Shown here: positions 49,874 to 64,000 of the stretch, piece by piece | Numbering within the stretch: the first letter of the stretch is position 1 | How the letters are laid out: each line of letters starts with the position of its first letter | Notes under the pieces: model-generated | Database searches by the model: none | What the model saw: only the letters and a program-made list of their open reading frames with translations | What the model was told of the DNA's origin: nothing | NCBI GenBank assembly: GCA_963725475.1 | Contig: CAVRYR010000006.1 | Coordinates: 329,450-393,449, forward strand | From: an uncultured Solirubrobacterales bacterium | Lineage (GTDB): Bacteria; Actinomycetota; Thermoleophilia; Solirubrobacterales; 70-9 | DNA length: 64,000 nt | Direction: 5' to 3' | Made by a program: the position numbers and the translations under genes

Positions 49874-50796
49874 CTAGTCGTTCGCGATGCGCTCCAGATG
49901 CTGCAACGCCCGACTCATCGCCCTGGCCACCGGCTCGACGTAACGCTCGCCCCGGCGCACGGCCAGCACGAGCGCGGCGCCGGCGAGCAGATCGACCACA
50001 TAGTGCTCCCCCAGGTAGACCAGGGCGAAGCCAAGCGGCGCCCGCGTAGGCCCCGCCGATGGCGCCGGCCCGCGGCCCCATCTCGGCCAGCAGGAGCGCG
50101 GCCATCAGCGAAGTGGCGAAGTGGAGAGAGGGCATCGCGGCCCACGGATTTCCTCCGAGCGTGTCGTAGAGGGCCGGCCAGGCCCTGCCCCACTCCTCCT
50201 CTCCGACCTCGACCATGATCCTCCGGACCTTGGCGTCGGTGTAGCCCTCCTCCGACGCCCACCAGGGCGGCGCCGTCGGGACCAGCGCGTACGACGACCA
50301 GGCCAAGGTCGTAGACAGCGGACATCTGCCGTGCGGAGCGCGCGAAGTGCTCTCGGTCGCGGGCGAGGATCCAGGTGAGCGAAGCGTGCGGCTCGAAGAA
50401 CCAGACCCAGTGGACCCAGGAGAGGAAACGGTCGACGACGTTTCGGCGGCCGAGCCCGGCCAGGGCCTTCTGCAGGCGAACGTTGGGCAGCTCGCCGCCG
50501 CCCAGGACGCGGTCGGCCCGGATCGGATAGCCGACCCGCAGCCGGCTGCGGAGCGCCTCGGGGTCGTCATACGGGAGCTCATGGCCCATCACGAACATCC
50601 ACATCTGAAGGGCGTACATGCCCGCGTCGCGAAGGCGCGTGCGGGGCCGGATCACGGCCAGGGCAGGCGGGCCCGCGGCGAGCGCGGCAGCAGTCACGGC
50701 CGCCGGGATCTTTGCTTCTTGCGCAGCAGCGGGACGGCGACCGCAGCGGCCAGCGCCGCCGCGGCGGCGCCCTTCACGAGGGGACGCCAGAGAGAG
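49874..50796 (-). pseudogene. PAP2-superfamily (PAP2_C/IPC-synthase-like) membrane protein, at least 2 apparent frameshifts (about 50040, 50290, possibly 50700)
   Basis: Frames read MYALQMWMFVMGHELPYDDPE...FLSWVHWVWFFEPH / YALVPTAPPWWASEEGY...GNPWAAMPSLHFATSLMAAL / GFALVYLGEHYVVDLLAGAALVLAV...LERIAND*. Confidence 0.55.
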
Positions 50797-51030
50797 GATC
50801 TTCTCAAGGGGGCGCGAGTCTAAAGCGGGACAAGGCGAGGTGCCGATACTCAGATGTGAGCTCTGAAGGGCTGGCCACTGCGCCCGCAGTGGTCCAGGTC
50901 TGCACGGGGATCGGCGTGAAGACGGTCGCCGAGTTCGTCGAGGACCAGCGACGATGGACATCCTCCACGAGCTGGGCGTTGACTTTGTTCCGGGGCTACC
51001 AGCTCGGCCGCCCGGCTCCGGTCTCGGAGC

Positions 51031-53937
51031 TCAGGGCCGGCTGACCAGCTCGAGCGGGATCACGAAGGACTCGTAGGCCGCGCCGGTCCCCTGCTGGAGG
51101 CCGATCTCGCAGGTCCGGTTGCTGCAGAGGTAGGCGTCGTGCTCTGAGCCCGCCAGCTCGGCGGCCTCCTCCGCCGTCGCCGGAGCGGGTCAGCTCGGGA
51201 TGGAGCATTCCGCGGTCGCCGGCCATCCCGCAGCAGGTGGCGCGGATCGGCTGGACGACCTCGTCGGCGATCACTCCGGCGATCTCGCGGAGCTGGCGCT
51301 CGAGGCCCAGGTGGCGGGTGGAGCAGGTCGGATGGACGGCGACCGAACCGAGCTTGCGGCGGATCTCGAGCTTCGGCAGCAGGCGCTTCGCCCAGGCGAC
51401 CGAGTCGAGGATCTCGAGCTTCGCATGGCGCTCGCGGTTCTCCTCGGTGAGGCTCGCAGCCGCCTCGCTGGCCAGGCCGAGCGAGCAGGAGCTCGCGTCG
51501 ATCACGACCGGCAGCTCACCCTCCGCGCTCCAGCGCCAGAGCGCCTCGACCGTGTGGTTCGCCATCGCCGCGGCGCCCTCGGTATAGCCCTTCGACGCCC
51601 ATGGCACCGAGCAGCAGTGTCCGGCCGCGTCCTCCGGGATCCAGACCGGCATCCCGGCCCGCGCCGAGACCGCGACCAGGGCCTCCGGCAGCGGCAGGCC
51701 AGACCCGTTGCGCGGGGCGGCCGAAGATCCGGTTGACGCAGGCGGGCATGTAGACGGCGGCCGCGCCGTCGCGCGTGGTCGCGGGCAGCTTCGCCGGCGC
51801 CGGCGGCGGCATGTTCGGCGGCCAGGAGGGGACGAGCTCGTCGCTGAAGAGGGAGCGGACGGCTCCCGCCCCGGCGCGCAGCAGCGGCCCGGCGAGGCTG
51901 CCGGCGCGCAGGCCCGCCCGGGCCGTGCGCTCCACCGCCGCCCAGCGCTCGGCCACTTGCACGGCGCGCCGCTGTGCCCTTTCCGTGTGCTCCTGCGCCC
52001 GGAACCCCTTGACCAGCTTGCCCGTGTCGATCCCCAGGGGACAGGCGATCTGGCAGGTGCCGTCGGCGGCGCAGGTCTGGATGCCGTCGTACTCGTACTG
52101 CTCGAGCAGCGCGCGTTGGACCGGCGAGCCGTCCGGCTGGCGGGCCATCTCGCGGCGAATCACGATCCGCTGCCGCGGCGTCGTCGTCAGGTGCCGGCTC
52201 GGGCAGACCGGCTCGCAGAAGCCGCACTCGACGCAGGTGGTCGCGACCTCCTCGATCTCCGGCGTCGTCTTCAGGTTGCGGAGGTGGGCGCCCTCGTCCC
52301 GGTTGAGCAGGACGCCGGGGGCGAGCACGCCATCCGGGTCGGCGAGCGCCTTGACCCGCCACATCAGCTCGGTCGCCTTCGCCCCCCACTCCCGCTCGAC
52401 GTAGGGAGCCATGTTGACCCCGGTGCCGTGCTCGGCCTTCAGCGAGCCGTCGTACTTGTCGAGGATCAGCTCGACCAGCTTCTCCATGAAGGCCTCGTAG
52501 CGCTCGAGGTCCTCCTGCTTCGCGAAGTCCGGGGTCAGCATGAAGTGGAGGTTGCCCGCCGAGGTGTGGCCCGCCACGCCGGGCAGGAAGCCGTGCTCCG
52601 TGAGCAGCGCCTGGATGTCGCGGGCCGACTCCGCGATCCGCTCCGGCGGCACGCAGACGTCCTCGATGATCAGCGAGGTCCCGGGGGCGCGGAAGCGGCC
52701 GATCAGCCCATGGAGTCCCTCGCGGACGGTCCAGGAGACCTCGATGCGCTCGGGGTCGCGGGTGAAGTCGGGCTCGCGGATCAGCTCGTGCTCGCGCAGG
52801 ATCTCCTCGGCACCGGCGACCAGCCGGTCGAGCTCGCCGTCGGTCTCGGCGCCGAACTCCACCAGCAGCGCGGCCGAGGTCGGCGGCAGCTCGAGCCAGT
52901 CCTGCGGGGCGCCCGCGATGTTCTGCGCGGCCACCATCAGCGCCGGCGCGACCATCAGCTCGACCGCGGTGGCGCCGGACGAGACCAGCGCCGGGACCGG
53001 CTCCGTCGCCGACTCGATGCCGTCGAAGTGGAGCCACGAGACCGTCGTCCTTGACGGCTTCGAGACCGTCTCGAATACGGCCTCAGAGATGAAGCCGAGC
53101 GTGCCTTCCGAGCCGATCAGCAGGCGGCGGAAGATCTCGACCGGCTCGTCGGCGTCGAGGAAGGCGCAGAGCCGGTAGCCGGTCGTGTTCTTGATCCGGA
53201 ACTTCCTGCGGATCCGCTCGCTGAGCTCGGCATCGGCCCGGATCTCGTCGCGGATCTCGGCCAGGCCGCGGGCAAGCTCCGGCTCGGCCGAGGCGAAGCG
53301 CTCCGCAGCATCGGGGGCGGCGGTGTCGATCACGGTCCCCGACGGCAGGACGAAGGTGAGCGAGCGGACCGTGCTGTAGGAGTCGGCGACGATCCCGCAG
53401 CGCATGCCCGCCGGAGTTGTTGGCGAGCACCCCGCCCACGCAGGCGATGTCGGTGCTCGCCGGATCCGGGCCGAGCTTCCGCCCGTACGGCGCCAGGATG
53501 CGGTTCGCGTGTCCCAGGACAGTTCCCGTCCGGACGCGCGCCCGCGCGCCCTCGTCGAGCACCTCGACGCCGCTCCAGTGCCGGCGAACGTCGACCAGGA
53601 TGCCGTCGCTCTGGGACTGGCCGTTGAGGCTGGTGCCGCCGGCGCGGAAGGTGAGCGGCAGCTTGGCTGAACGGGCGTAGGCGAAGACCTTGGAGACGTC
53701 GGAGACGTCGCGGGCCATCACCACCGCCTCCGGCAACAGGCGATACGGGCTCGCGTCCGAGGCGTATCGGACCAGGTCGATGACGCGGGTGAGGACGCGA
53801 TCCTCGCCGAGCAGGCCGATCAGCTCGCTGCGCAGCGGCTCCGGCGTCCCCGCCGCGAGCTCGTCCGGCGCCCGGTCCTTCGAGGGCTCGCTCGCCTCCG
53901 GGGCGATCCGGGTGACGTCCGGCGCCAGCAGGTCCAT
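51031..53937 (-). pseudogene. YdiJ-like FAD-linked oxidase fused to 4Fe-4S and CCG domains, at least 3 apparent frameshifts (about 53407, 51705, 51195)
   Basis: FAD-binding N-terminus (FRAGGTSLNGQS...CVGGVLANNSGG), then MRCGIVADSY...SEGTLGFISEAVF...SLKAEHGTG...CVECGFCEPVCPS...CAADGTCQIACP...ACVNRIFG, then PVWIPEDAAGHCC...HPTCS...CCGMAGDRG, then ATAEEAAEL...CSNRTCEIGL. Confidence 0.8.
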
Positions 53938-53965
53938 GGCCTCAGCCTAGTCGCCACCGCCCGGC

Positions 53966-55562
53966 TCAGAACAAGGCCATGCCCGGCGTGACCGGGACCT
54001 CGACCAGCTCGGGCTTCGCGGAGGCGATCGCGCCCTTCAGCGCCTCGCTGCAACTCCTCCCGGCCGGAGACACGCTTGGAGGAGACGCCGTAGGCGGTCG
54101 CCACCTCGGCCACCTCGAGCGCCGGCAGGTCGAGGCCGGGGGCGCCCTTGACCTCCTCGATGTCGGCGAACCACTTGAGGATCGCGTACTCCTCGTTGCG
54201 CAGGACCAGGAAGGTGACCGGGACCTCGTAGGCCGCCGCGGTCCAGAAGCCCGTGATCGCGTACTGGGCCGAGCCTTCGCCGAGCACGCAGACCACGGGC
54301 CGGTCGGGCTGGGCGAGCTGCACCCCGATCGCGGCAGCGAGGCCGAAGCCGAGGCCGCCGCCCGCGCCGAAGTAGTAGCTGCCGGGACGGGAGAGTCGCA
54401 GCTGGTTGCGGAGCGAGAGCGTGCTGGAGGGGGACTCGAGAACGACGATGCCGTCCTCGGGGAAGACGCCGGCGAGCGTGTTGTGGACCATCGTCGGCGT
54501 CAGCGGGTCGGACTCGTCGCCGGCGCTCGGCTCCGGCAGCGGGTCGGGCTCGGACCGGTTCGCCTCGCCGACCTCGGCGAGCAGCGCCCGCAGGGCGAGC
54601 CGGGAGTCGGCAAGGATCACGTCCCCCATCGGCGCGCGCGCCGCCTCGTCCGGGTCGCTGGTGATCGCGACCAGCGAGGCGCCCTCCGGCAGCAGCGGCC
54701 CCGGGATGTAGGGGTAGTACGGGAAGACCGAGGAGCCGATCACCAGGATCAGGTCGCGGCCCTTGAGCGTCTCCGCCACCGGCCCGATCGCCGGAGGCAG
54801 CACGCCCTGGAAGAGCGGATGGCCCTCGGGGAAGCCGAGCCGGCCGCCGCCCGGCGCGGGAGAGGCGAACACGGGCAGCTTCTGCCGCTCGGCCAGCTGT
54901 ACCGCCTCGTCCCAGGCGCCGCTGGCGTCGATGTCCGGGCCCGCCACGAGCACCGGGCTGCTCGCCTCCTCGAGCCGCTTCGCGAGGGCTTTGATCGCCT
55001 CGGGCTCCGGACCCGAGCGCGGCTCGGAGGCGCGCTCGACGACCCGGCCGGATTCCGGGTCCGCCTCCTCGTTCCAGTCGTCCATCGGCAGTGAGACGAA
55101 GGCTGGGCCCCGGGGGGCGAGCGACGCCGTGTGGATGGCACGTGCGAGAGCGTGGGGCACGTCCTGGGCGCGCGGCGGCTCGAAGCTCCACTTGACGAAG
55201 GGATGGACGACGCGGGTCGCGTCCCGGTTGGTCAGGTTCGCCTGCATGGTGATGTGGGCCCGGACCTGCTGGCCGGCCGTGACCACCAGCGGCGAGTGGT
55301 TGGCCTGGGCGTTGAAGATCGCCCCCATGCCGTTCCCTACCCCGGGCGCGGTGTGGAGGTTGACGTGGGCCGGCGTCCCGGACGCCTGCGCGTAGCCGTC
55401 CGCCATCCCCACCGCGACGGCCTCCTGCAACCCGAGCACGTAGCGGAAGTCGTCGGGGAACTCGGCGAGCATCGGCAGCTCGGTCGATCCCGGGTTGCCG
55501 AAGATCGTGGTCATCCCGTGCTTCCGGAAGAGCTCGAAGGTGACCTCGCGGACGGTCGCCAT
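53966..55562 (-). pseudogene. benzoylformate decarboxylase-like ThDP enzyme, frameshift near 54047
   Basis: MATVREVTFELFRKHGMTTIFGNPGSTELPML...GMADGYAQASG...TAGQQ; ThDP motif GEGSAQY...NEEY. The C-terminus continues in another frame: EALKGAIASAKPELVEVPVTPGMALF*. Confidence 0.85.
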
Positions 55563-55598
55563 GGCCGGGGAGCCTAACCGCCGGCCGCCTACGGGCGC

Positions 55599-56778
55599 TC
55601 AGACCTGCGAGACATGTCGCGGCGTCGATGGCAGCGTCGAGCCGCGCCTGATCACCTCGTTGCCGAAGCGCTTGCGGATCTCGTCGATCGCGAGGTCGAG
55701 CGCCGGATCGAGCGCGGGGCTCAAGAGGGAGCTCCAGCTGGGCCTGGTCGCTGAGGTTGGCGACGGTGATCCCGAGCAGGGTGATCCCGCGGCGCTCGAT
55801 CAGGGGCCCGGCGGCGGTGAGCAGGGCCCTCGCCGCCGCCAGGATCGTGCCCGTGCCGGCGCTCGGGTGGGCGAGGGTGCGGGAGCGGGTCGCCCGGGAG
55901 AAGTCGCCGAAGCGCAACCGCAGCGTCACCGTGCGGCCCGCCCGGTTCGCCGCCCGCGCCCGCCGCGTCACCCGGTCCACCAGGGTCACCAGGAGCGCGT
56001 CGAGGCTCGATCCCGATCTCCCGCCGCCGGCGAACGCCGACTGCGTGCCGATCGACCGCCGCCGCCGGCCGCGACGGACGCGCCGTGGATCGCGGTTGTG
56101 CGCGACCGCGTGGAGATGCCGCGCGGCGTGGCCTCCCAGGAACATGGCGAGCTCCCCCTCGTCGCGACGCCCGAGCTGCCCGATCGTGGCGATCCCGTGG
56201 GCGCGGAGCCGCTCCGCGGTCACCGCGCCGACACCCCAGAGGGCCTCGACAGGCAGCGGCTCGAGAAAGTCCCGCTCCCGCTCGGGTTCGATCACCAACA
56301 GGCCATCGGGCTTGGCTGCCCGGCTCGCCATCTTGGCGAGCACCTTCGTCCGGGCGACGCCGACGGTGACCGCCAGCCCGACCCGCTCCCGCGCCTGGCA
56401 CCGCAGCCGCGCGGCGATCTCGCGCGGGGTCCCGGAGATCCTCTCGAGCCCGCGGACGTCGAGAAACGCCTCCTCCAGCGACATGCCCTCGACCAGCGGC
56501 GCGGTCTGATCGAACAGGTCGAAGAGCGCCTTGCTCGCCTCCGTGTAGGCGGAGAAGCGCGGCGGCACGAACACCGCGTGGGGACAGAGGCGCCTGGCCC
56601 GTCCGCCGCCCATCCCGCCATGGATCCCGAAGGCGCGCGCCTCGTAGCTCGCCGCCATGACAACGCCGACGCCGACGATGGTCGGCTTTCCCCGGAGCCT
56701 CGGATCGTCCCGCTGCTCGACCGAGGCGAAGAACGCGTCGGCGTCGGCGTGCAGGATCGATGCCGCTGCAGCTGACAC
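55599..56778 (-). pseudogene. dinB: DNA polymerase IV, frameshift near 55722
   Basis: ILHADADAFFASVEQRDDPRLRGKP..., SLEEAFLDV, GVARTKVLAKMAS..KP.G, LWGVG. The C-terminal PALDPALDLAIDEIRKRFG is in a shifted frame. GTG start at 56778. Confidence 0.85.
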
Positions 56779-56903
56779 GAACGTATGTTCGCATCGCGCC
56801 GGGCCCCGTTCAAGCCACCTCAGGGCAGGGACGGCGATCACGGGCGGGCCTGGGGGCGGGAACGGCGGCGACAAGGAACGCCGCCCCGGCAAGCAGCGCA
56901 ACG

Positions 56904-58682
56904 CTAAGTCGCGACGGCCTCTTCGGCAAGGACGCGTCTCTCCGCGAGCCCCCCGAAGTCGACCGGGCCGGGCATGAGCCGCTCGGGCGGCGGGATCTCG
57001 ATCCCGATCGCGGCCATCCGGCGCTTCAGCGCCTGGTAGGCGAAGCCGTAGACCTGCGAGGAATGGTGCCCGTAGGAGAAGAAGTCGGAGGGATCGTCTG
57101 CCTCCGGCGGGCAGAAGACCTCGGCGGCCTGCGGCAGCAATTCCTCCAGCCGACGCAGGATCACGCCCTTCATGCTGGGGCGTTCGTCGCAGACGTCCTT
57201 GAGGAAGCGGACGCCGAAGGCGATGTGCCGGTGCTCGTCCTGCTCGACCAGGCTGAAGCCCTTGTTGAAGCCGGGATAGAGGTCGTGATCCTCCGTGTAC
57301 TGGATCATGATCCGCTGGCCGGGCATCGCCAGGACCCCCTCGGTGACCATGTGGTACGTGACGATGCCCTCGACGAAGAGCTTGAGGTCGTCGGGGCGGT
57401 CCTTGATCCGGTTGGCGATCTCGCGCAGTGAGTCGTCGAAGAGGAAGTGCCAGGGGCCGAGCATGCGGTCCTCGATCTCCTGCAGGCGGCCGCGGAAGCT
57501 GCCGGACTCGAGACCCATCACCTCGCTCGCCCAGCGATCGAAGAAGACGGCGTGGCGCATCTCGTCGACCAGCTGCGTCGCCAGAAAGGCCTCAACCTCG
57601 CCGCTCGGTGCGGCGAGCAGGAAGGGCGCGAGGTCGGAGGTGACCCGCTCCTCGCCGACGTAGAAGCTGCCGATGCTGAACGCCGTGTGCTGCTGCGCCT
57701 CGGCGGGCGTGACCAGCCAGTGCTCGCGGTCCTTCGAGAAATCGAGCTCATGGGCGCGCCAGTTCTGTCGCTCCCAGAGGGCGTAGAGCTGCTCGTAGCT
57801 CAGCAGCCCACCCTTCGGGCGGGACTCGGCGGGATCGCCGGACGTGCCGTTGGACGGCGCCTTGCTCCCCCAGCTGCCGGCGTTGCGGGCCTGCTGGACG
57901 CGCTGGCGCTCCTCCCGCTCGAGCTCGGGGCCGTCGACACCCTCGGCCCGGTCGATCCAGCGGCCCAGCTGGGTGACCGGCGGCATGCTCCCCTCGACCT
58001 CGGTCAGCCCGAGGCGCATCGCGTCGGAGGGCGTCACCTCGCCGGCGAGCAGCCGAAGCCAGTCCGAGTAACGGATGCGGACGATCGCGTCCGGGCTCTC
58101 GCCGCTACCGCGCTCGACGCCGACGGTCCCATCGTCGACCTCGACCCTCCAGGCACCGCCGCCCTCTCCCACCAGCTCGTAGGCGACCGTGAAGCGGTGG
58201 CCCCGCGTCCATTCCGGCTCGATCGCGTAGGCGAGCGAGCGGTAGACCAGGTCGGCGTCGACCCGCACACCGAGGCGGGCGAGATCGCGCGGGCCGGCCT
58301 CTGTCTCGAGCCGGCGCAGCGCCAGCGCCTTGCGTCGCCGGCCGCGGAGCTTCACCCGCCGACGGGCCAGGGCCCCCAGCGGGCTGCGCCCGGAGGCGAT
58401 GCGGGCGAGCGTGGCGGGATCGGTCGAGATCGCGAAGGCCTCGCCGTTCAGGTCGGCGCCGTCGGGGGCCTCGGCGACCTCGGCGCGCTCGCCGTTCGGC
58501 CGGACGGTCCAGGCGCCGAGCCCTTCGAGCTCGAGGCGATAGCTCAGTCCCTCGGGAAGCGAGGCGGCAGCGGCGGGCAGCGCGTGCACGATCAGCCGAG
58601 CGGCAAGCTCGGGGTCCGACTCCGCCATCCGGCGGAGCGCGTGCGCGGCGGTTCCTCTCTGCGCGTCTCCGTTACGCGCCAT
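56904..58682 (-). CDS. fusion protein: two SCP2 sterol-carrier-like domains + R2-like (ribonucleotide reductase small subunit/ferritin-like) di-metal carboxylate domain
   Basis: One uninterrupted frame from ATG 58682. Two repeats of the SCP2_2 pattern (...ATLARIASGRSPLGALARRRVKLRG / ...SDWLRLLAGEVTPSDAMRLGLTEVEG). Then an R2-like domain with ligand motifs GEE, VDEMRH, VTEG, EQDEHRH. Confidence 0.75.
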   Translation of the reverse strand: MARNGDAQRGTAAHALRRMAESDPELAARLIVHALPAAAASLPEGLSYRLELEGLGAWTVRPNGERAEVAEAPDGADLNGEAFAISTDPATLARIASGRSPLGALARRRVKLRGRRRKALALRRLETEAGPRDLARLGVRVDADLVYRSLAYAIEPEWTRGHRFTVAYELVGEGGGAWRVEVDDGTVGVERGSGESPDAIVRIRYSDWLRLLAGEVTPSDAMRLGLTEVEGSMPPVTQLGRWIDRAEGVDGPELEREERQRVQQARNAGSWGSKAPSNGTSGDPAESRPKGGLLSYEQLYALWERQNWRAHELDFSKDREHWLVTPAEAQQHTAFSIGSFYVGEERVTSDLAPFLLAAPSGEVEAFLATQLVDEMRHAVFFDRWASEVMGLESGSFRGRLQEIEDRMLGPWHFLFDDSLREIANRIKDRPDDLKLFVEGIVTYHMVTEGVLAMPGQRIMIQYTEDHDLYPGFNKGFSLVEQDEHRHIAFGVRFLKDVCDERPSMKGVILRRLEELLPQAAEVFCPPEADDPSDFFSYGHHSSQVYGFAYQALKRRMAAIGIEIPPPERLMPGPVDFGGLAERRVLAEEAVAT

Positions 58683-58769
58683 CTCGGCGGCGATTCTGCC
58701 AGAAGCCGCAGGCGATTTGGCCAGCCAGCCAATCGTCGCCGCGGAGCGAATTAATAGACTCACGCCGCC

Positions 58770-59519
58770 TTGCTCGGCCCGCACACCGCTCACTCGCCGA
58801 ACGCCGACGACCTCAACACCCTCTACTGGGTGATGCTGGCGATCGGCCTGGTCCTGCTGGTTGCGATCAACCTCGCGCTGGTCGGGCTGGTGATGCGTTT
58901 CCGCTCCGCCCGCGGGCGGCAGCCGCGGCGGCTGATGGTGCGCCGCCCGGCGCAGCTCGGGACGGCGGGGATCTTCGCCGCGATCGTGGTGGTGACGTTC
59001 ATCCTGGGGGTGATCGAGACGCATAACGCGAAGCAGGTGGAGGCTTCCGGGCCCAACGGCCTGCAGGCGACCTCGAGCCTGCTCGCCCAGCGCTCCCTGG
59101 AGCTGCCCGCGACGTCCGCTTCCTCCGCGCCGCTCGAGATCAAGGCCTGCGGCCAGCAGTGGCTGTGGCGCTACGAGTACCCGGACGGCACCTACTCCTA
59201 CTACGAGCTGGTCGTCCCGGTCGACACGGCGGTGATCCTCCACCTCTGCTCGACCGACGTCGTCCATCGCTGGTGGGTGCCGGGCCTCTCCGGCAAGTTC
59301 GACGCGACTCCGGGCGCAAGCAACTCGGCCTGGTTCAAGGCCGACCAGACCGGGATCTACGACGGCGCGAGCTACGCCTTCTCCGGCGCCTCGTACGCGG
59401 CGATGCGGACACGGGTCCGGGTGGTCGACGTGCCCGCCTACCAGGCCTGGCTCCAGCAGCAGGCCGCCGGCATCCAGGCGGCGCAGAGCTTCGTCCAGCA
59501 GGCGAACGGGGAGGGCTGA
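58770..59519 (+). CDS. cytochrome oxidase subunit II homologue lacking the CuA site
   Basis: TTG start. Two N-terminal TM helices, cupredoxin domain QQWLWRYEYP...STDVVHRWWVPGLSGKFDATPG. The CuA motif position reads GASYAFSGASYAAM instead of C.E.CG..H..M. Confidence 0.8.
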   Translation: MLGPHTAHSPNADDLNTLYWVMLAIGLVLLVAINLALVGLVMRFRSARGRQPRRLMVRRPAQLGTAGIFAAIVVVTFILGVIETHNAKQVEASGPNGLQATSSLLAQRSLELPATSASSAPLEIKACGQQWLWRYEYPDGTYSYYELVVPVDTAVILHLCSTDVVHRWWVPGLSGKFDATPGASNSAWFKADQTGIYDGASYAFSGASYAAMRTRVRVVDVPAYQAWLQQQAAGIQAAQSFVQQANGEG

Positions 59520-61231
59520 TGAGCGACGGACGCACCCTCGCCCCGCAGCGCCCCGAGCTCGTCAGCGACGCGCCCGCGCCGTCGCGGCCGCGCTGGCTCG
59601 AGATGGTGATGAGCACCGACCACAAGGACGTCGGGCGAATCCAGATCGGAGCGGCGCTCAGCTTCCTGGTGCTCGGGATCGTCGGCTTCCTGCTGATCCG
59701 GCTGCAGCTCGGCGTCCCCGAGAACAACCTGATCGAGCCGGTCACCTTCAACCGCATCCTCTCCGTCGACAGCGCCACCCTGATCGTCCTCTTCGCGGTG
59801 CCCTTCGTCTTCGGCCTCTACACCTACGTGGTCCCGCTCCAGATCGGGGCGCGGGCGATGGCCTTTCCCCGGTTGGCGTCGCTCTCCCTGTGGCTATTCG
59901 TGTTCGGCGGAGCCCTGCTCTACATCAGCTTCGCGTACACGCCGCCCGAGACCGGGTTCAACGCCTGGCCGCCGCTCTCCGACCTCACCTTCACGTCCAA
60001 CAACGGCCCCGACGTCTGGATCACAGCGGTCGGCCTCGCCACGCTGGGGATGGTCCTGCAGTCGATCAACCTGGCGGTGACGATCGCGAAGCTGCGCGCG
60101 CCCGGCCTGGCCTGGCGGCGCCTGCCCACGTTTGCCTTCTCGGGCGCCGTCTCCAGCTGGACGATGATCGTCGCGGGTTCGGCGATGCTCGCCGCTCTGG
60201 TGATGCTGGAGGTCGACCGCCACTTCGGCGGTGTCTTCTTCGACGCGGGCGAGGGCGGGGCGCCGATCTTCTACCAGCATCTGAGCTGGATCTTCTTCAC
60301 CGGCTGCTACCTGGTCTTCCTGCTGCCGGCGATCGGCACGATCTCCGAGATCCTGCCCGTTTTCTGCGGCAAGCCGCTGCTCTCGCGAAGCGCGCTGATG
60401 GCGTCGATGGCGGCGATCATGCCGCTCGGCCTGCTGGCCTGGATGCAGAACATGATGACCGCGTCGATCCCGATCGGCTGGCTCTACGGGGCGATGCTGA
60501 TGGCGCTGCTGCTTGCGATCCCGCTCGGGATCGTGTTCGTCAACTGGCTCGGCACGCTCGCGGGCGGCGTGCTGCGCATGCGGGCGCCGCTGGTCTTCGC
60601 CGTCGCGTCGATCTCCACGCTCGCCTTCGGCCTGGTCGGCGAGCTGATCCAGAGCGTCATCCCGGTGAACTGGCTGCTCGCCGACACCACGGCCTCCACT
60701 GCCGCCACCGGCTATGTCCTGGTGGGTGGACCGGTCCTCGGCGGCTTCGCCGCCCTCTACTACTGGTTCCCGAAGATCACCGGCCGCACGATGGGCGAGG
60801 ACCTGGCCAAGGCCTCCGCGGCCCTGATCGTGCTGGGCGCCCAGGCGACCTTCATCCCGCTCTTCCTCGCCGGGCTCGAGGGTCAGCAGGTGGACATCTT
60901 CAAGTTCTTCGAAGCCAGCGACGCGATCAACGCCGAGCACCTCAACGCCCTCAACCTGATCGCGACGATCGGCGCCTTCATCCTCGCGCTCGGCATCGTG
61001 CTCTCGATCGTCAACGCGTACCTGGGCATCACGAAGGGGACCCCCGCCGGCCACGATCCATGGGGCGGCGAGACGCTCGAGTGGTTCGCCACCTCCCCGC
61101 CCCCGCCGCACAACTTCGACGTCGTCCCGGACGTGCGGAGCGACGAGCCGTTGCGCGACATTCGCGAGGCAATCCGCCGCCGGGACGCCTCCCGCAGCGA
61201 ACCGGCGGAGACGACCGAGCCGGTAGCCTGA
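59519..61231 (+). CDS. heme-copper oxidase subunit I homologue lacking all six canonical His ligands
   Basis: TGATG overlap with subunit II. 570 aa, 12-TM scaffold motifs kept (STDHKDVG, MAFPRL, VDRHFGG, YQHLSW, PVFCGKP, YYWFPKITGR, DPWGGETLEWFATSPPPPHNF). Ligand positions read S, T, Q, N, A, G (details in finding). Confidence 0.85.
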   Translation: MSDGRTLAPQRPELVSDAPAPSRPRWLEMVMSTDHKDVGRIQIGAALSFLVLGIVGFLLIRLQLGVPENNLIEPVTFNRILSVDSATLIVLFAVPFVFGLYTYVVPLQIGARAMAFPRLASLSLWLFVFGGALLYISFAYTPPETGFNAWPPLSDLTFTSNNGPDVWITAVGLATLGMVLQSINLAVTIAKLRAPGLAWRRLPTFAFSGAVSSWTMIVAGSAMLAALVMLEVDRHFGGVFFDAGEGGAPIFYQHLSWIFFTGCYLVFLLPAIGTISEILPVFCGKPLLSRSALMASMAAIMPLGLLAWMQNMMTASIPIGWLYGAMLMALLLAIPLGIVFVNWLGTLAGGVLRMRAPLVFAVASISTLAFGLVGELIQSVIPVNWLLADTTASTAATGYVLVGGPVLGGFAALYYWFPKITGRTMGEDLAKASAALIVLGAQATFIPLFLAGLEGQQVDIFKFFEASDAINAEHLNALNLIATIGAFILALGIVLSIVNAYLGITKGTPAGHDPWGGETLEWFATSPPPPHNFDVVPDVRSDEPLRDIREAIRRRDASRSEPAETTEPVA

Positions 61232-61235
61232 CGCC

Positions 61236-62279
61236 ATGGCCGGACCCGTTGCCGGCGGCGGCGGGGAGCAGCTCCGTCGGTTTCGCCGCTTGGCAGACCT
61301 CACCGCTGTTGTCACCTTCCTGCTGATCGTCGTCGGCGGCGTCGTCCGCGTGAGCGAGTCCGGCCTGGGCTGCGGCCCGGGCGGCAGCGGGACGAAGGGC
61401 TGGCCGCTCTGCGGCGGCCAGGTGATCCCGCTGGTCGGCAACGAGAACCGGATCATCGAGTTCTCCCACCGGCTGCTCGCCACCGTGGTCGTGCTCCTGA
61501 TCGCGGCTCCTCTGCTACCGCGCGTATCGCGATCTGCGCGAGCGGAGCGGCTGGGCCTTCCGCGGCAGCCTGATCGCCGGCGTCGCTGGTGCTGGCGCAG
61601 GCGGCCCTCGGCGGGCTCACCGTCGAGCACAGCCTTGCCGAAGAGCTGGTCGCCGCCCATCTCGGCACCGCGATGCTGCTGCTCGGCCTGCTGCTCTGGC
61701 TCGGCGCGAAGGCGCGCTCCGAGGCCGCGGCCGACGCGGGAGCGCGAGCACCGGTCGGTCCGGGGGCTGAAGCCCTACGCGGCGACCGCCGCCGTCCTGC
61801 TCTTCTGCGCGATCGTCGCCGGCGGCTACATGGCCGGCACCGAGGAGAGGGGCGTCGGCGAGGTTGGCCCCAACGTCGCCGGGGCGCACATGGCGTGCGG
61901 CAAGATGTTCCCCGAGTGCGGGTCGGGCAGGTTCCTGCCGTTCGGAAACAACCGGCTCACCGACATCCATCTCACCCACCGCGCCTTCGTCTACCTGGCG
62001 ACGATCGCGATCATCGTGCTGCTCCTGGTCGCCTTCGCGCGCGGGTCGCGCGACCGGCTGCTCGCCCTGGCCGCACTGCTGCTCTTCTGCCAGGTGCTGC
62101 TCGGCGCCCTCAACGTCTGGCTCGGCGAGCACGGCCCGCTGATCGTCGCCCACCTGGCGACCGCGACGCTGCTCTGGGCGACGGTGGTGTCGATCGGCTA
62201 CCGGCTCGCCTGGATCCCGGCTGCGTCCGGTACCAGTCAGCGGGCGCCGCGCGCCGAGGCATCGGCGGCGGCCGCATGA
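61236..62279 (+). pseudogene. ctaA: heme A synthase (COX15/CtaA), three apparent +1 shifts within about 250 nt (about 61508, 61588, 61738)
   Basis: VRVSESGLGCGPGGSGTKGWPLCGG...EFSHRLLA (frame 0); LLCYRAYRDLRERSGWAFRGSLIAGV (frame 1); VLAQAALGGLTVEHSLAEELVAAHLGTAMLLLG (frame 2); then back to frame 0: KPYAATAAVLLFCAIVAGGY...HMACGKMFPECG...LTHRAFVY...IVAHLATATLLW. Confidence 0.85.
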
Positions 62280-62378
62280 GCGTCCACCTCGGCACAGGGA
62301 CCGAGCGGGTCGGGAACGCGCGCGCGCCCCGGCGGCGATCAGGTCTCGGTCACCCCGAGCGACGCGCGCGCCCGGACG

Positions 62379-63249
62379 ATGCGCCACGCGATCGCGGTCG
62401 CGAACGACTACGTCACCCTCACCAAGCCGCGGATCATCTCCCTGCTGCTGCTCACCTGCGTGGCGACGATGTTCGTCGCCGACCCCTCGGGCCCCGCCCT
62501 CTCGACCATCCTCTGGACCTGCCTCGGCGGCTACCTGGCCGCCGGCGGCGCCGGGGCGATCAACCACTACATCGAGCGCGAACCGGACGCCCGTATGGCC
62601 CGGACGCCGCGGCCGCCCCCTGGCCAGCGGGCGGATCGAGCCGCGGCGCGGGCTGCTCTTCGGCTCCGCGCTCGGGCTCGTCGCCGTCGTCCAGCTGGCG
62701 ATCACCGTCAATGCCCTGACCGCGGCGCTGGCGGCAGCCGGACTGCTCGGCTACGTCTTCGTCTACACGCTCTGGCTGAAGCCGCGGACGCCGCAGAACA
62801 TCGTCCTCGGGGGCGCCGCCGGCGCGATGCCGCCGCTGGTCGGCTGGGCGGCCGCCACCGGGGAGCTCTCGGCGCAGGCGCTGTGGATGTTCGCGATCGT
62901 CTTCTTCTGGACGCCGCCGCACTTCTGGGCGCTCTCGCTGCTGATCTCCGACGACTACGCCCGCACCGGCGTGCCGATGCTGCCCGTCGTCCGCGGGGAG
63001 ACCACCACGCGCCACCAGATCGTCGGCTACGCGCTGCTCCTGGTCGCGATCACGATCGGGCCGGTGATCACGGGCCTGTTCGGGACCGCCTACCTGATCG
63101 CCGCCCTCGCCCTCGGCGCCGGCTTCGTCGGCCTCGCTCTGGTGCTGCTCGTCAACCCCTCCCGGCCCGCCGCCCGGCGGCTCTACCTGAGCTCGCTCGC
63201 CTACCTGGCGCTGCTCTTCATCGCGATGGCCCTCGACCGGGCGTTATAG
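62379..63249 (+). pseudogene. ctaB: protoheme IX farnesyltransferase (heme O synthase), frameshift near 62612 in a C5 run
   Basis: DYVTLTKPRIISLLLLT...GAGAINHYIEREPDARMARTP, then the next frame has LASGRIEP...YTLWLKPRTPQNIVLGGAAGAMPPLVGWAA...FFWTPPHFWALSL...DYARTGVPMLPVV. Confidence 0.85.
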
Positions 63250-63302
63250 GGTTCCGCGCGCATGGATCGCGAGACGCGCCAGGGCCACGATCCGCGTCGG
63301 GC

Positions 63303-63377
63303 ATGCTGTCGGCCGGCAGCCTCGCGCTGCTGGTCTTCGCGCTGGCCTTCTACATCTCGATCCTCTACCTGCGATGA
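63303..63377 (+). CDS. candidate 24-aa hydrophobic peptide
   Basis: MLSAGSLALLVFALAFYISILYLR. Its stop overlaps the ATG of the next small ORF (ATGA). Purely positional and hydrophobicity evidence. Confidence 0.25.
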   Translation: MLSAGSLALLVFALAFYISILYLR

Positions 63378-63636
63378 GCCAGCCCGCGAAGCCGACCGAG
63401 TCGATCTACCTGCCTCGGCCGACCGTCTGGCCCGCGCTGCTCGCCTTCGGGCTGATCACGCTCGTGGTCGGCCTGTTCGCCTGGTGGCCCTACTCCGTGA
63501 TCGGCGGGGCGATCGCGCTCTTCTCCTGATCGCCTGGCTGCGCGTCAACAGCGGCGAGATCGCCCGCATGCCGCGGCGCCAGCAGACGGACACCGCGCCG
63601 ATCCCGCTGTCGCTCTGGGAGCCCGGCGACGAGTAG
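63374..63636 (+). pseudogene. small 2-TM protein, possibly oxidase-associated, frameshift near 63522
   Basis: MSQPAKPTESIYLPRPTVWPALLAFGLITLVVGLFAWWPYSVIGGAIALF, then the next frame has LLIAWLRVNSGEIARMPRRQQTDTAPIPL... No family recognised with confidence. Confidence 0.4.
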
Positions 63637-63655
63637 CCCGGCGGCCTGACGCGCC

Positions 63656-64000
63656 CTACGGGGGCGTCATCGACGAGGTCGCCCCGAACCTCGTCCAGCA
63701 GCGCACGATGTCGCGCATCGAGAGGACGCCGACCAGCTCGCCCCGGTCGACGACCACCAGGTGGCGGATGCCGCGCTGCACCATCTCCTCGGCCGCCTGC
63801 TCGAGGCTCCAGTCGGGCGCCGCCGAGATGACGCTCTCGGACATGTGATCGGCGACCTTCTCGGCGTCCGGGTCCTTGCCGGTGCCGACCGCCTTGAGGA
63901 TGTCGCGCTCGGTGATGATCCGCGGCCCCGGCGACTCGTCGTCGAAGACCAGGGCGGCGCCGGTGCCCTTCTCGGTCATCTTGGTCGCCGTCTCGCGCAG
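63656..64000 (-). CDS. CBS domain protein (N-terminus beyond window end)
   Basis: ...GAALVFDDESPGPRIITERDILKAV...VISAAPDWSLEQAAEEMVQRGIRHLVVVDRGELVGVLSMRDIV. The reading frame stays open upstream of the track ATG to the window edge. Confidence 0.75.
   Translation of the reverse strand: MRETATKMTEKGTGAALVFDDESPGPRIITERDILKAVGTGKDPDAEKVADHMSESVISAAPDWSLEQAAEEMVQRGIRHLVVVDRGELVGVLSMRDIVRCWTRFGATSSMTPP

Follow-up and report, generated by a model that had tools for sequence, protein, structure and literature searches.

An oxidase gene pair that appears to keep its fold

What becomes of a heme-copper oxidase (HCO) gene pair when the residues that hold its hemes and copper have gone? This question is raised by a locus in a 64,000-nucleotide stretch of DNA from an uncultured Solirubrobacterales bacterium (contig CAVRYR010000006.1 of assembly GCA_963725475.1, positions 329,450 to 393,449), here called the window, in which two plus-strand genes, cox2L (58770..59519; 249 amino acids, aa) and cox1L (59519..61231; 570 aa), encode homologues of oxidase subunits II and I. 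The two frames share a single base, the stop codon TGA of cox2L (59517-59519) overlapping the start codon ATG of cox1L (59519-59521) in the sequence TGATG. A first-pass annotation, read from the letters by eye, had described the pair as an oxidase that keeps its scaffold and has lost every metal ligand. We find that the pair belongs to a widespread lineage of ligand-less homologues maintained by purifying selection, and that it is very probably a conserved, selected pseudo-oxidase without cofactors.

The family membership of both genes is clear. The product of cox1L matches Pfam COX1 (PF00115) with E = 1.2e-87 over profile positions 2-436 of 436, which places it in the HCO superfamily, and that of cox2L matches Pfam COX2 (PF00116) with E = 4.5e-17. 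The closest solved structures to cox1L are those of actinobacterial CtaD (6hwh, 8hcr, 6adq and 7q21; E ~1e-88 to 1e-83). An AlphaFold2 (AF2) model of cox1L, built from 12 sequences, has 12 long helices (mean predicted local distance difference test score, pLDDT, 75.8; predicted template modeling score, pTM, 0.79), and Foldseek aligns it with CtaD of 7qhm_D and 6hwh at a TM-score of 0.82, a probability of 1.00 and 31-33% identity. In cox2L, two N-terminal transmembrane (TM) helices precede a cupredoxin domain, and three segments, the TM hairpin among them, align with subunit II of R. sphaeroides, so that the cupredoxin fold appears to be retained. The profile matches and the structure prediction, run for subunit I, bear out the earlier description of cox1L as a single reading frame that aligns with CtaD over its whole length and keeps the scaffold.

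The equivalog models of NCBIfam, which carry curated cutoffs, separate the pair from true oxidases. The score of cox1L against TIGR02891 (CtaD_CoxA) is 405.3 bits, below the cutoff of 670.75, and that of cox2L against TIGR02866 (CoxB) is 133.8 bits, below the cutoff of 147.7. The canonical CtaD encoded at the same syntenic position in a related genome (locus L070) passes TIGR02891 with 740 bits.

Loss of cofactor and proton-channel residues

The replacements in cox1L were read from a HMMER residue alignment to CtaD, with high posterior support at the relevant columns, together with a read-out of the codons; HMMER and MAFFT gave identical ligand columns. None of the six histidines of a functional HCO is left: the helix II His is D84 (GAC), the first CuB His is T261, the CuB His pair is Q310 (CAG) and N311 (AAC), the heme a3 His is A396 and the heme a His is G398. 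The Glu of the CuB motif has become C263, the cross-linked Tyr L265, the D-channel Asp A113 and the K-channel Lys V339. In addition, the Arg pair that anchors the heme propionates, in the motif GMPRR, is replaced in GQQVD (V458, D459), a loss absent from the first-pass annotation. Each of the hallmarks of the A family at these sites is thus missing from cox1L, from the cross-linked Tyr and the Asp, Glu and Lys of the two proton channels to the Arg pair for the propionates.

The CuA site has gone as well. Its ligands, canonically H-C-E-C-H-M, read H164-S199-A201-S203-Y207-M210 in cox2L, and alignment with subunit II of R. sphaeroides assigns the changes as Cys to Ser199, Glu to Ala201, Cys to Ser203 and His to Tyr207. 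Two of the six CuA ligands are retained, namely the first His (H164, in DVVHRWW) and the Met (M210).

The ligand columns chosen by eye thus stand, except at helix II, where the residue replacing His is Asp84 and not the neighboring Ser85. The claim that every metal ligand had been lost holds for the six histidines of subunit I but has to be narrowed for subunit II, which keeps H164 and M210. It was also correctly noted that the codons of Q310 and N311 are each one step away from a His codon, and a quinol oxidase was rightly dismissed, as subunit I has not a single heme ligand. Because axial ligands, CuB, CuA, proton-channel residues and propionate anchors are all lacking, it follows from established knowledge of the superfamily that the pair should be unable to reduce O2 or NO, or to pump protons by known HCO pathways.

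Conservation among homologues and purifying selection

A search over 5.8 billion proteins gave 3017 matches at E <= 1e-10, and the best 120 clusters were analyzed. These are 81-100% identical to cox1L, come mostly from soil metagenomes and from metagenome-assembled genomes (MAGs) labelled Solirubrobacterales, and have a length of exactly 570 aa in 102 of the 120. T261, Q310, N311, A396 and G398 are invariant among them, and helix II position 84 varies (G in 82, D in 31, E in 6 and S in 1).

A wider view was obtained from a scan of one genome per GTDB species, which yielded at least 597 matching stretches; the best 80, all from Thermoleophilia, were classified by tblastn and alignment. In 67 of these the locus is dead, that is, its subunit I is ligand-less, and the other 13 have a canonical oxidase at the same syntenic position. 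The subunit I proteins of the dead loci are 46-89% identical to that of the reference locus, L002. N311 is present in all 67, Q310 in all but one (L010, with His310) and Thr or Ser at 261 in all but three, so that these three of the substituted sites, whose conservation the first-pass annotation had proposed as a check, are near-invariant across the dead loci. Unlike in the 120 close relatives, A396 and G398 vary across this wider clade. Its members have L, M or V in the Tyr column, A, T or C in the Glu column, G or S in place of the D-channel Asp, and V, I or L in place of the Lys. A large dead subclade reads Y-G-T/S-A-M-Q-N-V/I-A-H (hereafter Y..AH), one helix X His being kept, whereas the subclade of the window has lost all six. 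In subunit II, nearly all dead loci show the CuA pattern H-S/A-x-S-Y-M, and both Cys are lost everywhere. The same substitutions occur in hundreds of independent assemblies from JGI, ENA and NCBI.

Selection was estimated as the ratio of nonsynonymous to synonymous substitution rates (dN/dS, or omega) between species-level relatives, by the pairwise NG86 method, which probably overestimates omega in this genome of 70% GC. The values are 0.10-0.22 for dead subunit I and 0.13-0.31 for dead subunit II, as compared with 0.01-0.22 for ctaA, 0.06-0.19 for ctaB, 0.06-0.14 for the active COX1 of the same loci and 0.12-0.14 for an upstream gene related to ribonucleotide reductase R2. With the YN00 estimator, the pairs that converged had values of 0.03-0.05 for dead subunit I. 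On these figures, purifying selection acts on both dead subunits, whose ratios fall within the range of the functional neighbors or exceed it modestly.

These data decide whether the pair is a recent pseudogene or an artefact of sequencing or of alignment by eye. The window does contain many indels relative to its relatives, and the Q310 and N311 codons lie close to His codons. However, the two alignment programs agree on the ligand columns, the substitutions recur in independent assemblies, and dN/dS is far below 1. The reading frame is intact both in the window and in 67 species genomes, down to 46% identity, and Q310 and N311 are conserved. The probability of a pseudogene or artefact is practically nil, and the orthologue data refute it. 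The earlier conclusion that the pair is not a pseudogene is hence sustained, but on other grounds than the open frame in a region littered with frameshifts, which had been offered in its support; that argument is weak because, with indels as frequent as they are here, 2.46 kb would stay intact by chance with a probability of ~0.1, and it is the orthologues that supply the decisive evidence. With its fold kept, its catalytic and cofactor residues gone and purifying selection acting on it, the pair has the features of a pseudoenzyme, its inactivity being predicted from sequence.

The variation among subclades bears on another explanation, namely that the pair is still a redox protein that binds heme or copper through unconventional ligands, for instance Tyr and His at the low-spin heme of the large subclade, or Met residues that hold Cu(I). 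Most dead loci have a Tyr in helix II and the second His of helix X, Met309 and Met312 (joined by Met265 in the Y..AH subclade) cluster at the old CuB site, and subunit II retains one His and the Met. But the window subclade, with G/D84 and G398, has no candidate axial ligand, the propionate Arg pair is V/Q plus Asp in 97% of the sequences, and the CuA Cys pair is lost throughout. Moreover, the residues at the ligand sites differ among subclades, which is unexpected for a conserved cofactor site. A redox function of this sort seems to us highly improbable.

Remodelling of the ligand-less scaffold

A comparison of 69 dead sequences (mean pairwise identity within the clade, 0.62) with the 13 syntenic canonical ones distinguishes what was kept from what was changed. 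At 94 positions the same residue is conserved in both the dead and the A1-type canonical sequences; examples are DHK, PLQIGAR..A.PR, RAPG, DR, H254, W308, WFPK..GR and LEW..SPP..NFD. Another 26 positions that are conserved in the A1 sequences are now free to vary in the dead clade, and 24 have switched to a different conserved residue. The switches include M to Q108, P to G262, V to Y264, A to M309, H to Q310, H to N311, G to L372, G to E375, R to D459 and R to D538, and their conservation within the dead clade is high (96% for E375 and for Y264, 97% for M309 and for D459). A new six-residue 'DAINA' insert (466-471) lies in the periplasmic XI-XII loop at the former site of the Arg pair, and helix X, which once bore two heme ligands, is now rich in Thr, Ser and Ala. 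Because Gly and other small residues, several of them close to the old binuclear site, have become bulky or polar (G to L372, G to E375, V to Y264, A to M309 and G to A53), the cofactor pockets would seem to have been re-packed, not left as empty heme sites. A new polar cluster formed by T261, Y264, Q310, N311 and E375 is itself probably under selection.

Such a cluster could mean that the protein has been neofunctionalised for binding or transport, the rebuilt polar site (T/S261, Y264, Q310, N311 and E375, with Met309 and Met312 nearby) binding a non-redox cation or a small molecule, or conducting ions. The near-universal Q310 and N311, the high conservation of E375, Y264 and M309 and the Ser/Thr/Ala-rich helix X fit this explanation, and these residues are more constrained than loss of function alone would predict. 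Yet with the loss of the D- and K-channel residues and of the entrance Asp no known access path remains, and the residues of the cluster could simply form hydrogen bonds between helices VI, VII, IX and X in place of the metals. Transport-related neighbors are absent from the loci, as is a precedent in the superfamily. We consider binding or transport quite unlikely.

Operon context and origin

The dead loci have the gene order subunit II - subunit I - ctaA (in some subclades) - ctaB - s36 - s79, in which ctaA and ctaB encode heme A and heme O synthases and s36 and s79 are small reading frames; a CBS-domain gene on the opposite strand and then a diheme cytochrome c gene come after s79. Of the 67 dead loci, 66 have ctaB directly after the pair, and the exception (L032) ends ~160 nt past cox1L. 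As between cox2L and cox1L, stop and start codons overlap between ctaA and ctaB (ATGA), and the gap between cox1L and ctaA is 5 nt. A consensus promoter scan found no promoter-like sites, and the terminator-like sites that it found, located inside cox1L, barely exceed those of shuffled sequences.

In every locus with sufficient flanking sequence, a second, active oxidase operon, COX2-COX1-332 aa ORF (open reading frame)-COX3, is found at a distance of 2-8 kb. The COX1 of this operon retains the six His together with the Tyr and the Lys, and carries the A2-type motif YSHPAVY; the operon is on the other strand and is a transcription unit separate from the dead pair. The canonical oxidase for which the first-pass annotation had suggested a search is thus present 2-8 kb away in related loci, but the 64-kb window itself, which ends inside the CBS gene, contains no canonical COX1 or COX3.

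The proximity of an active enzyme raises the possibility that the dead pair accompanies the active caa3 oxidase, or a supercomplex, as a subunit without catalytic activity or as one half of a pseudo-dimer, contributing contacts or membrane organization only. The A2 operon and the diheme cytochrome c are within 2-8 kb in almost all loci, the nearest solved relatives of cox1L are the CtaD proteins of obligate bcc-aa3 supercomplexes, many of the 94 A1-conserved positions that were kept are away from the active site, and the entire module including the small reading frames has been retained. On the other side, the active operon is a separate unit on the other strand, and the dead genes appear to be co-transcribed with ctaA and ctaB instead. 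On balance this partnership is unlikely.

The 13 canonical loci come from Thermoleophilaceae and some Solirubrobacterales MAGs. They have an A1-type subunit I (H-D-H-E-Y-H-H-K-H-H) and a subunit II that reads H-C-E-C-H-M, or H-C-Q-C-H-M in one. The order II-I-(ctaA)-ctaB-s36-s79-CBS, with an A2 operon nearby, is common to the dead and the canonical loci, and the dead pair is accordingly orthologous, by conserved synteny, to A1-type CtaC/CtaD. CuA loss and heme/CuB loss coincide locus by locus. A neighbor-joining (NJ) tree unites the dead genes in one clade, which has a long stem and, as its sister, the clade of canonical genes from the syntenic position. Most simply, a lineage equipped with an A2-type oxidase and a second one of A1 type underwent a single, ancient and concerted inactivation of the latter and then retained the genes; this event is assigned to the ancestor of an extensive Thermoleophilia clade whose members are mostly Solirubrobacterales and Conexibacter relatives. 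The retained module has since diverged to ~43% identity. As canonical, intermediate (Y..AH) and fully stripped forms occur at one syntenic locus, the order of ligand loss can be read from them.

The same operon structure admits an explanation without any function at the protein level, in which the pair is a translated 5' part of the operon that allows ctaA and ctaB to be expressed by translational coupling, and selection only keeps an abundant membrane protein foldable and harmless. Stop and start codons overlap throughout the operon, the operon structure was inherited from an active ancestor, and dead subunit I diverges several-fold faster than the active COX1 of the same genomes (e.g. 55% versus 83% identity to L002). 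However, the dN/dS of dead subunit I equals that of ctaA and approaches that of ctaB, its length is exact to the residue in 102 of the 120 clusters, and foldability can hardly explain 24 newly fixed residues and a conserved insert. The concerted CuA and heme loss, followed by co-conservation of both subunits and two small reading frames, also speaks against a mere leader, as does the Y..AH subclade, which keeps the pair though ctaA has moved away. We find this explanation improbable.

Some further features of these loci were observed. In the Y..AH subclade (L009-L045 and similar), which keeps a Tyr in helix II and a His in helix X at the old low-spin heme site, ctaA is not between subunit I and ctaB, and a divergent ctaA (~30-37% identity to the L002 protein) is found after the cytochrome c gene. 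A soluble ORF of ~330 aa lies between COX1 and COX3 of the A2 operon in most loci (L002:18820-19815, minus strand), and Pfam gave no significant family for the 332-aa ORF of the active operon. The diheme cytochrome c of L002 (16445-17200), from a long-read assembly, ends in ~27 glycines, and that of L001, otherwise identical, differs at the C-terminus; the glycine run, a low-complexity tract, may have arisen in the assembly. Finally, locus L072 (CAMCVN010000003.1), titled as a Bifidobacterium breve MAG, shows the synteny typical of Thermoleophilia and encodes a CtaD that shares 94.5% identity with the one of L069, an 'Actinomycetes bacterium' MAG, so it is probably a mislabelled or contaminant contig.

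A possible role as a membrane scaffold

The overall explanation that we prefer is an ancient, concerted loss of the redox centers, retention under selection and use of the product as a non-redox membrane scaffold, and we give it a probability of roughly 0.5. Subunits II and I, s36 and s79 would form a stable four-protein membrane module without redox function, co-translated with the heme O and heme A synthases. The scaffold would organize or stabilize CtaB and CtaA; alternatively, it would be a docking platform in the biogenesis of the neighboring active A2 (caa3-type) oxidase. That a stable complex is made alongside the heme synthases is suggested by the conservation of the pair, the co-retained subunit II and small reading frames, and the translational coupling to ctaA and ctaB. 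Among the roles that the first-pass annotation had suggested (a scaffold, a heme O/A handling factor or a transporter), the operon context favors the first two. The scaffold is also supported by other degenerate COX1-like lineages, described below, that likewise adjoin ctaB/ctaA and a canonical oxidase operon, and by an acknowledged gap: according to a recent review, the route of heme A from CtaA to subunit I is unknown (PMC9145763). Any specific scaffold or biogenesis role is more tentative, somewhat short of an even chance.

Several points weigh against this explanation. The linkage to ctaA and ctaB is ancestral and is found in the canonical A1 loci too, so the operon linkage is not independent evidence for heme handling. 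In the window, ctaA, ctaB, s36 and s79 all carry indels, which, if real, would uncouple the pair from heme A synthesis in this organism. Heme A could scarcely be held in the old sites, since the axial ligands are gone, an Asp stands at the propionate-Arg position and bulky residues have entered the pockets, and the AF2 model, derived from 12 sequences, cannot tell open from filled cavities. A heme A holdase that uses the old pockets, with no axial ligand, Asp for the propionate Arg and bulky residues for pocket Gly, was considered and judged unlikely.

A narrower form of the scaffold explanation is possible but doubtful: a fossil apo-oxidase, with s36 and s79 as its small membrane partners, might be dedicated to heme O/A synthesis or oxidase assembly without being catalytic itself, and might dock CtaB and CtaA and help or regulate the hand-over of heme A to the active caa3 oxidase. 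If this were true, the pair would be the first HCO-derived pseudoenzyme and a missing player in bacterial heme A trafficking, and other Actinomycetota would use their own degenerate COX1-like proteins, encoded beside ctaB, in the same way. In any case, a pair located in a ctaA/ctaB operon beside an active oxidase is a testable candidate for heme A delivery to subunit I.

Neighboring genes and indels in the window

Downstream of the pair, on the same strand, ctaA (61236..62279), encoding a heme A synthase of the COX15 family, starts 5 nt after cox1L. Relative to four relatives (L002-L005) it has indels of +1, +1 and -2 at 61505, 61585 and ~61749 (tblastn frames 3, 1, 2 and 3); these sum to zero, so that the 347-aa frame stays open with ~80 codons out of frame. 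The L002 orthologue is intact, with 347 aa and a Pfam COX15-CtaA match. The start codon of ctaB (62276..63249, plus strand), encoding a heme O synthase of the UbiA family, overlaps the ctaA stop codon; according to the tblastn frames and the alignment, the gene is frameshifted at ~62314 and 62607, and its orthologue is intact, with 322 aa and a Pfam UbiA match.

Next come the two small genes, both on the plus strand. The first, s36 (63262..63377), is conserved after ctaB and encodes ~36 aa with one TM helix (MDRxxARxx..G...L..F.L.F..A..Y). It is frameshifted in the window at 63274 and ~63301, occurs in dead loci and in the canonical A1 loci L069, L073, L074, L076 and L079, and matches no Pfam family significantly (the best E, 0.022, is below threshold). 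The second, s79 (63374..63636), is conserved after s36 and encodes ~75-95 aa with two TM helices (..E.IYLP.PS..P...WW....W.R....P). It is frameshifted in the window at ~63526, is found in dead and canonical A1 loci, and has no Pfam family. Together they are located at L002:13785-14131, L074:13684-14026 and L069:11709-12040. Probably they served the ancestral oxidase as small subunits or in its assembly, have so far gone unannotated and were retained with the dead pair.

Upstream, on the minus strand, a 592-aa gene (56904..58682) encodes a fusion of SCP2 lipid-binding domains with a ribonucleotide-reductase-R2-like (ferritin-like di-metal) domain. This gene, transcribed divergently from the dead pair, is upstream of it in the closer relatives only (L001-L004, L006-L008 and L013).

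The region 49900-64000 has ~13-14 frameshifting events in ~14 kb relative to four or five relatives, single-base insertions or small indels that lie outside homopolymers. Their sites include 51160, 51715, 53420, 55715, 61505, 61585, 61749, 62314, 62607, 63274 and 63526, and they affect ctaA, ctaB, s36 and s79 and, further upstream, a gene at 49.9-50.8 kb, a dinB-like gene and an FAD-oxidase/iron-sulfur gene, but spare the gene for a thiamine pyrophosphate (TPP) enzyme, the R2-like gene and the dead pair. Assembly error is the likeliest cause, because many of the related contigs are long-read soil MAGs. Since the conclusions drawn here rest on orthologues, the indels in the window leave them unaffected.

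Comparison with known systems

A full-text search of the literature found no description of a ligand-less HCO family, in agreement with the earlier statement that no such family was known, and a paper on Thermoleophilia mentions only a COX3 indel marker. In all named database entries the cox1L homologues are labelled as subunit I of cytochrome c oxidase, with or without the prefix 'cbb3-type'. Aerobic respiratory capacity will consequently be over-counted where terminal oxidases are inventoried from the genomes of Solirubrobacterales and other Thermoleophilia, which in this analysis came mostly from soil metagenomes and MAGs, and a check of the ligand columns or the NCBIfam equivalog cutoff would correct the mislabelling. 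The six histidines of subunit I, regarded as invariant across the superfamily, are wholly absent in a widespread lineage under selection. The lineage is a natural experiment on what a 12-helix HCO scaffold needs for folding without hemes or copper. In short, a conserved and apparently metal-free oxidase pair in common soil bacteria must now, it would seem, do some other job.

This pair may not be alone. Many of the 150 nearest cluster representatives at 50% identity show partial ligand loss, and degenerate HCO homologues may be commoner than is recognized. P0145, P0182 and P0230 (on Acidimicrobiales-type contigs), P0130 and P0152 resemble cox1L in that several or most of the ligand His are replaced; unlike cox1L, however, P0145 and P0230 keep only the two low-spin heme His, and P0130 keeps two of the six. 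The genes of P0145 (L083:8001-9677), P0230 (L085:4742-6406), P0130 (L086:4303-6027) and P0152 (L087:6001-7641) adjoin ctaB/ctaA and are near a canonical oxidase operon; P0268 is a further degenerate COX1-like protein. On the 3' side of the P0145/P0230-type gene are a COX3-like gene, a gene for a 330-350-aa possible cupredoxin protein and a thioredoxin-like gene. In an NJ tree of the degenerate lineages and the dead clade, all fast-evolving sequences group together, which is possibly an effect of long-branch attraction.

Among possible functional analogues, Surf1/Shy1, CtaM and Cox11/CtaG are also membrane proteins encoded near oxidase or heme A genes and act in oxidase biogenesis. The likeness would go no further than function, as their folds are unrelated to that of the pair, and Surf1 binds heme A through a conserved His, whereas the pair has no evident ligand.

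Within the superfamily, gNOR and the NO-dismutase-like variants, which keep both hemes, resemble the pair in having a replaced active-site ligand. In gNOR, one CuB/FeB His is replaced by Asp and the cupredoxin subunit lacks CuA, and it is still proposed to reduce NO; a 2024 survey regarded it as the sole HCO family with an active-site His replaced (PMC11214002). The difference is one of extent, as gNOR loses a single CuB/FeB His and the pair loses every cofactor site. The quinol oxidases (bo3 CyoAB and aa3-600 QoxAB) are A-family relatives that, like the pair, have a cupredoxin subunit II without CuA, and cox1L matches their structures 6kob and 1fft with E = 1e-76 to 1e-71. These enzymes keep the six subunit I His, both hemes, CuB and the proton channels, of which the pair keeps none. 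The best match of all is the A1-type aa3 CtaD/CtaC of Actinomycetota (M. smegmatis 6hwh/6adq, M. tuberculosis 8hcr and C. glutamicum 7qhm). Unlike these proteins, the pair lacks the six His, the Tyr, the Glu, the channel residues, the Arg pair, the CuA Cys pair and one CuA His, but it shares with them the 12-TM subunit I, the subunit II of two TM helices and a cupredoxin domain, and many of the signature blocks that are not ligands.

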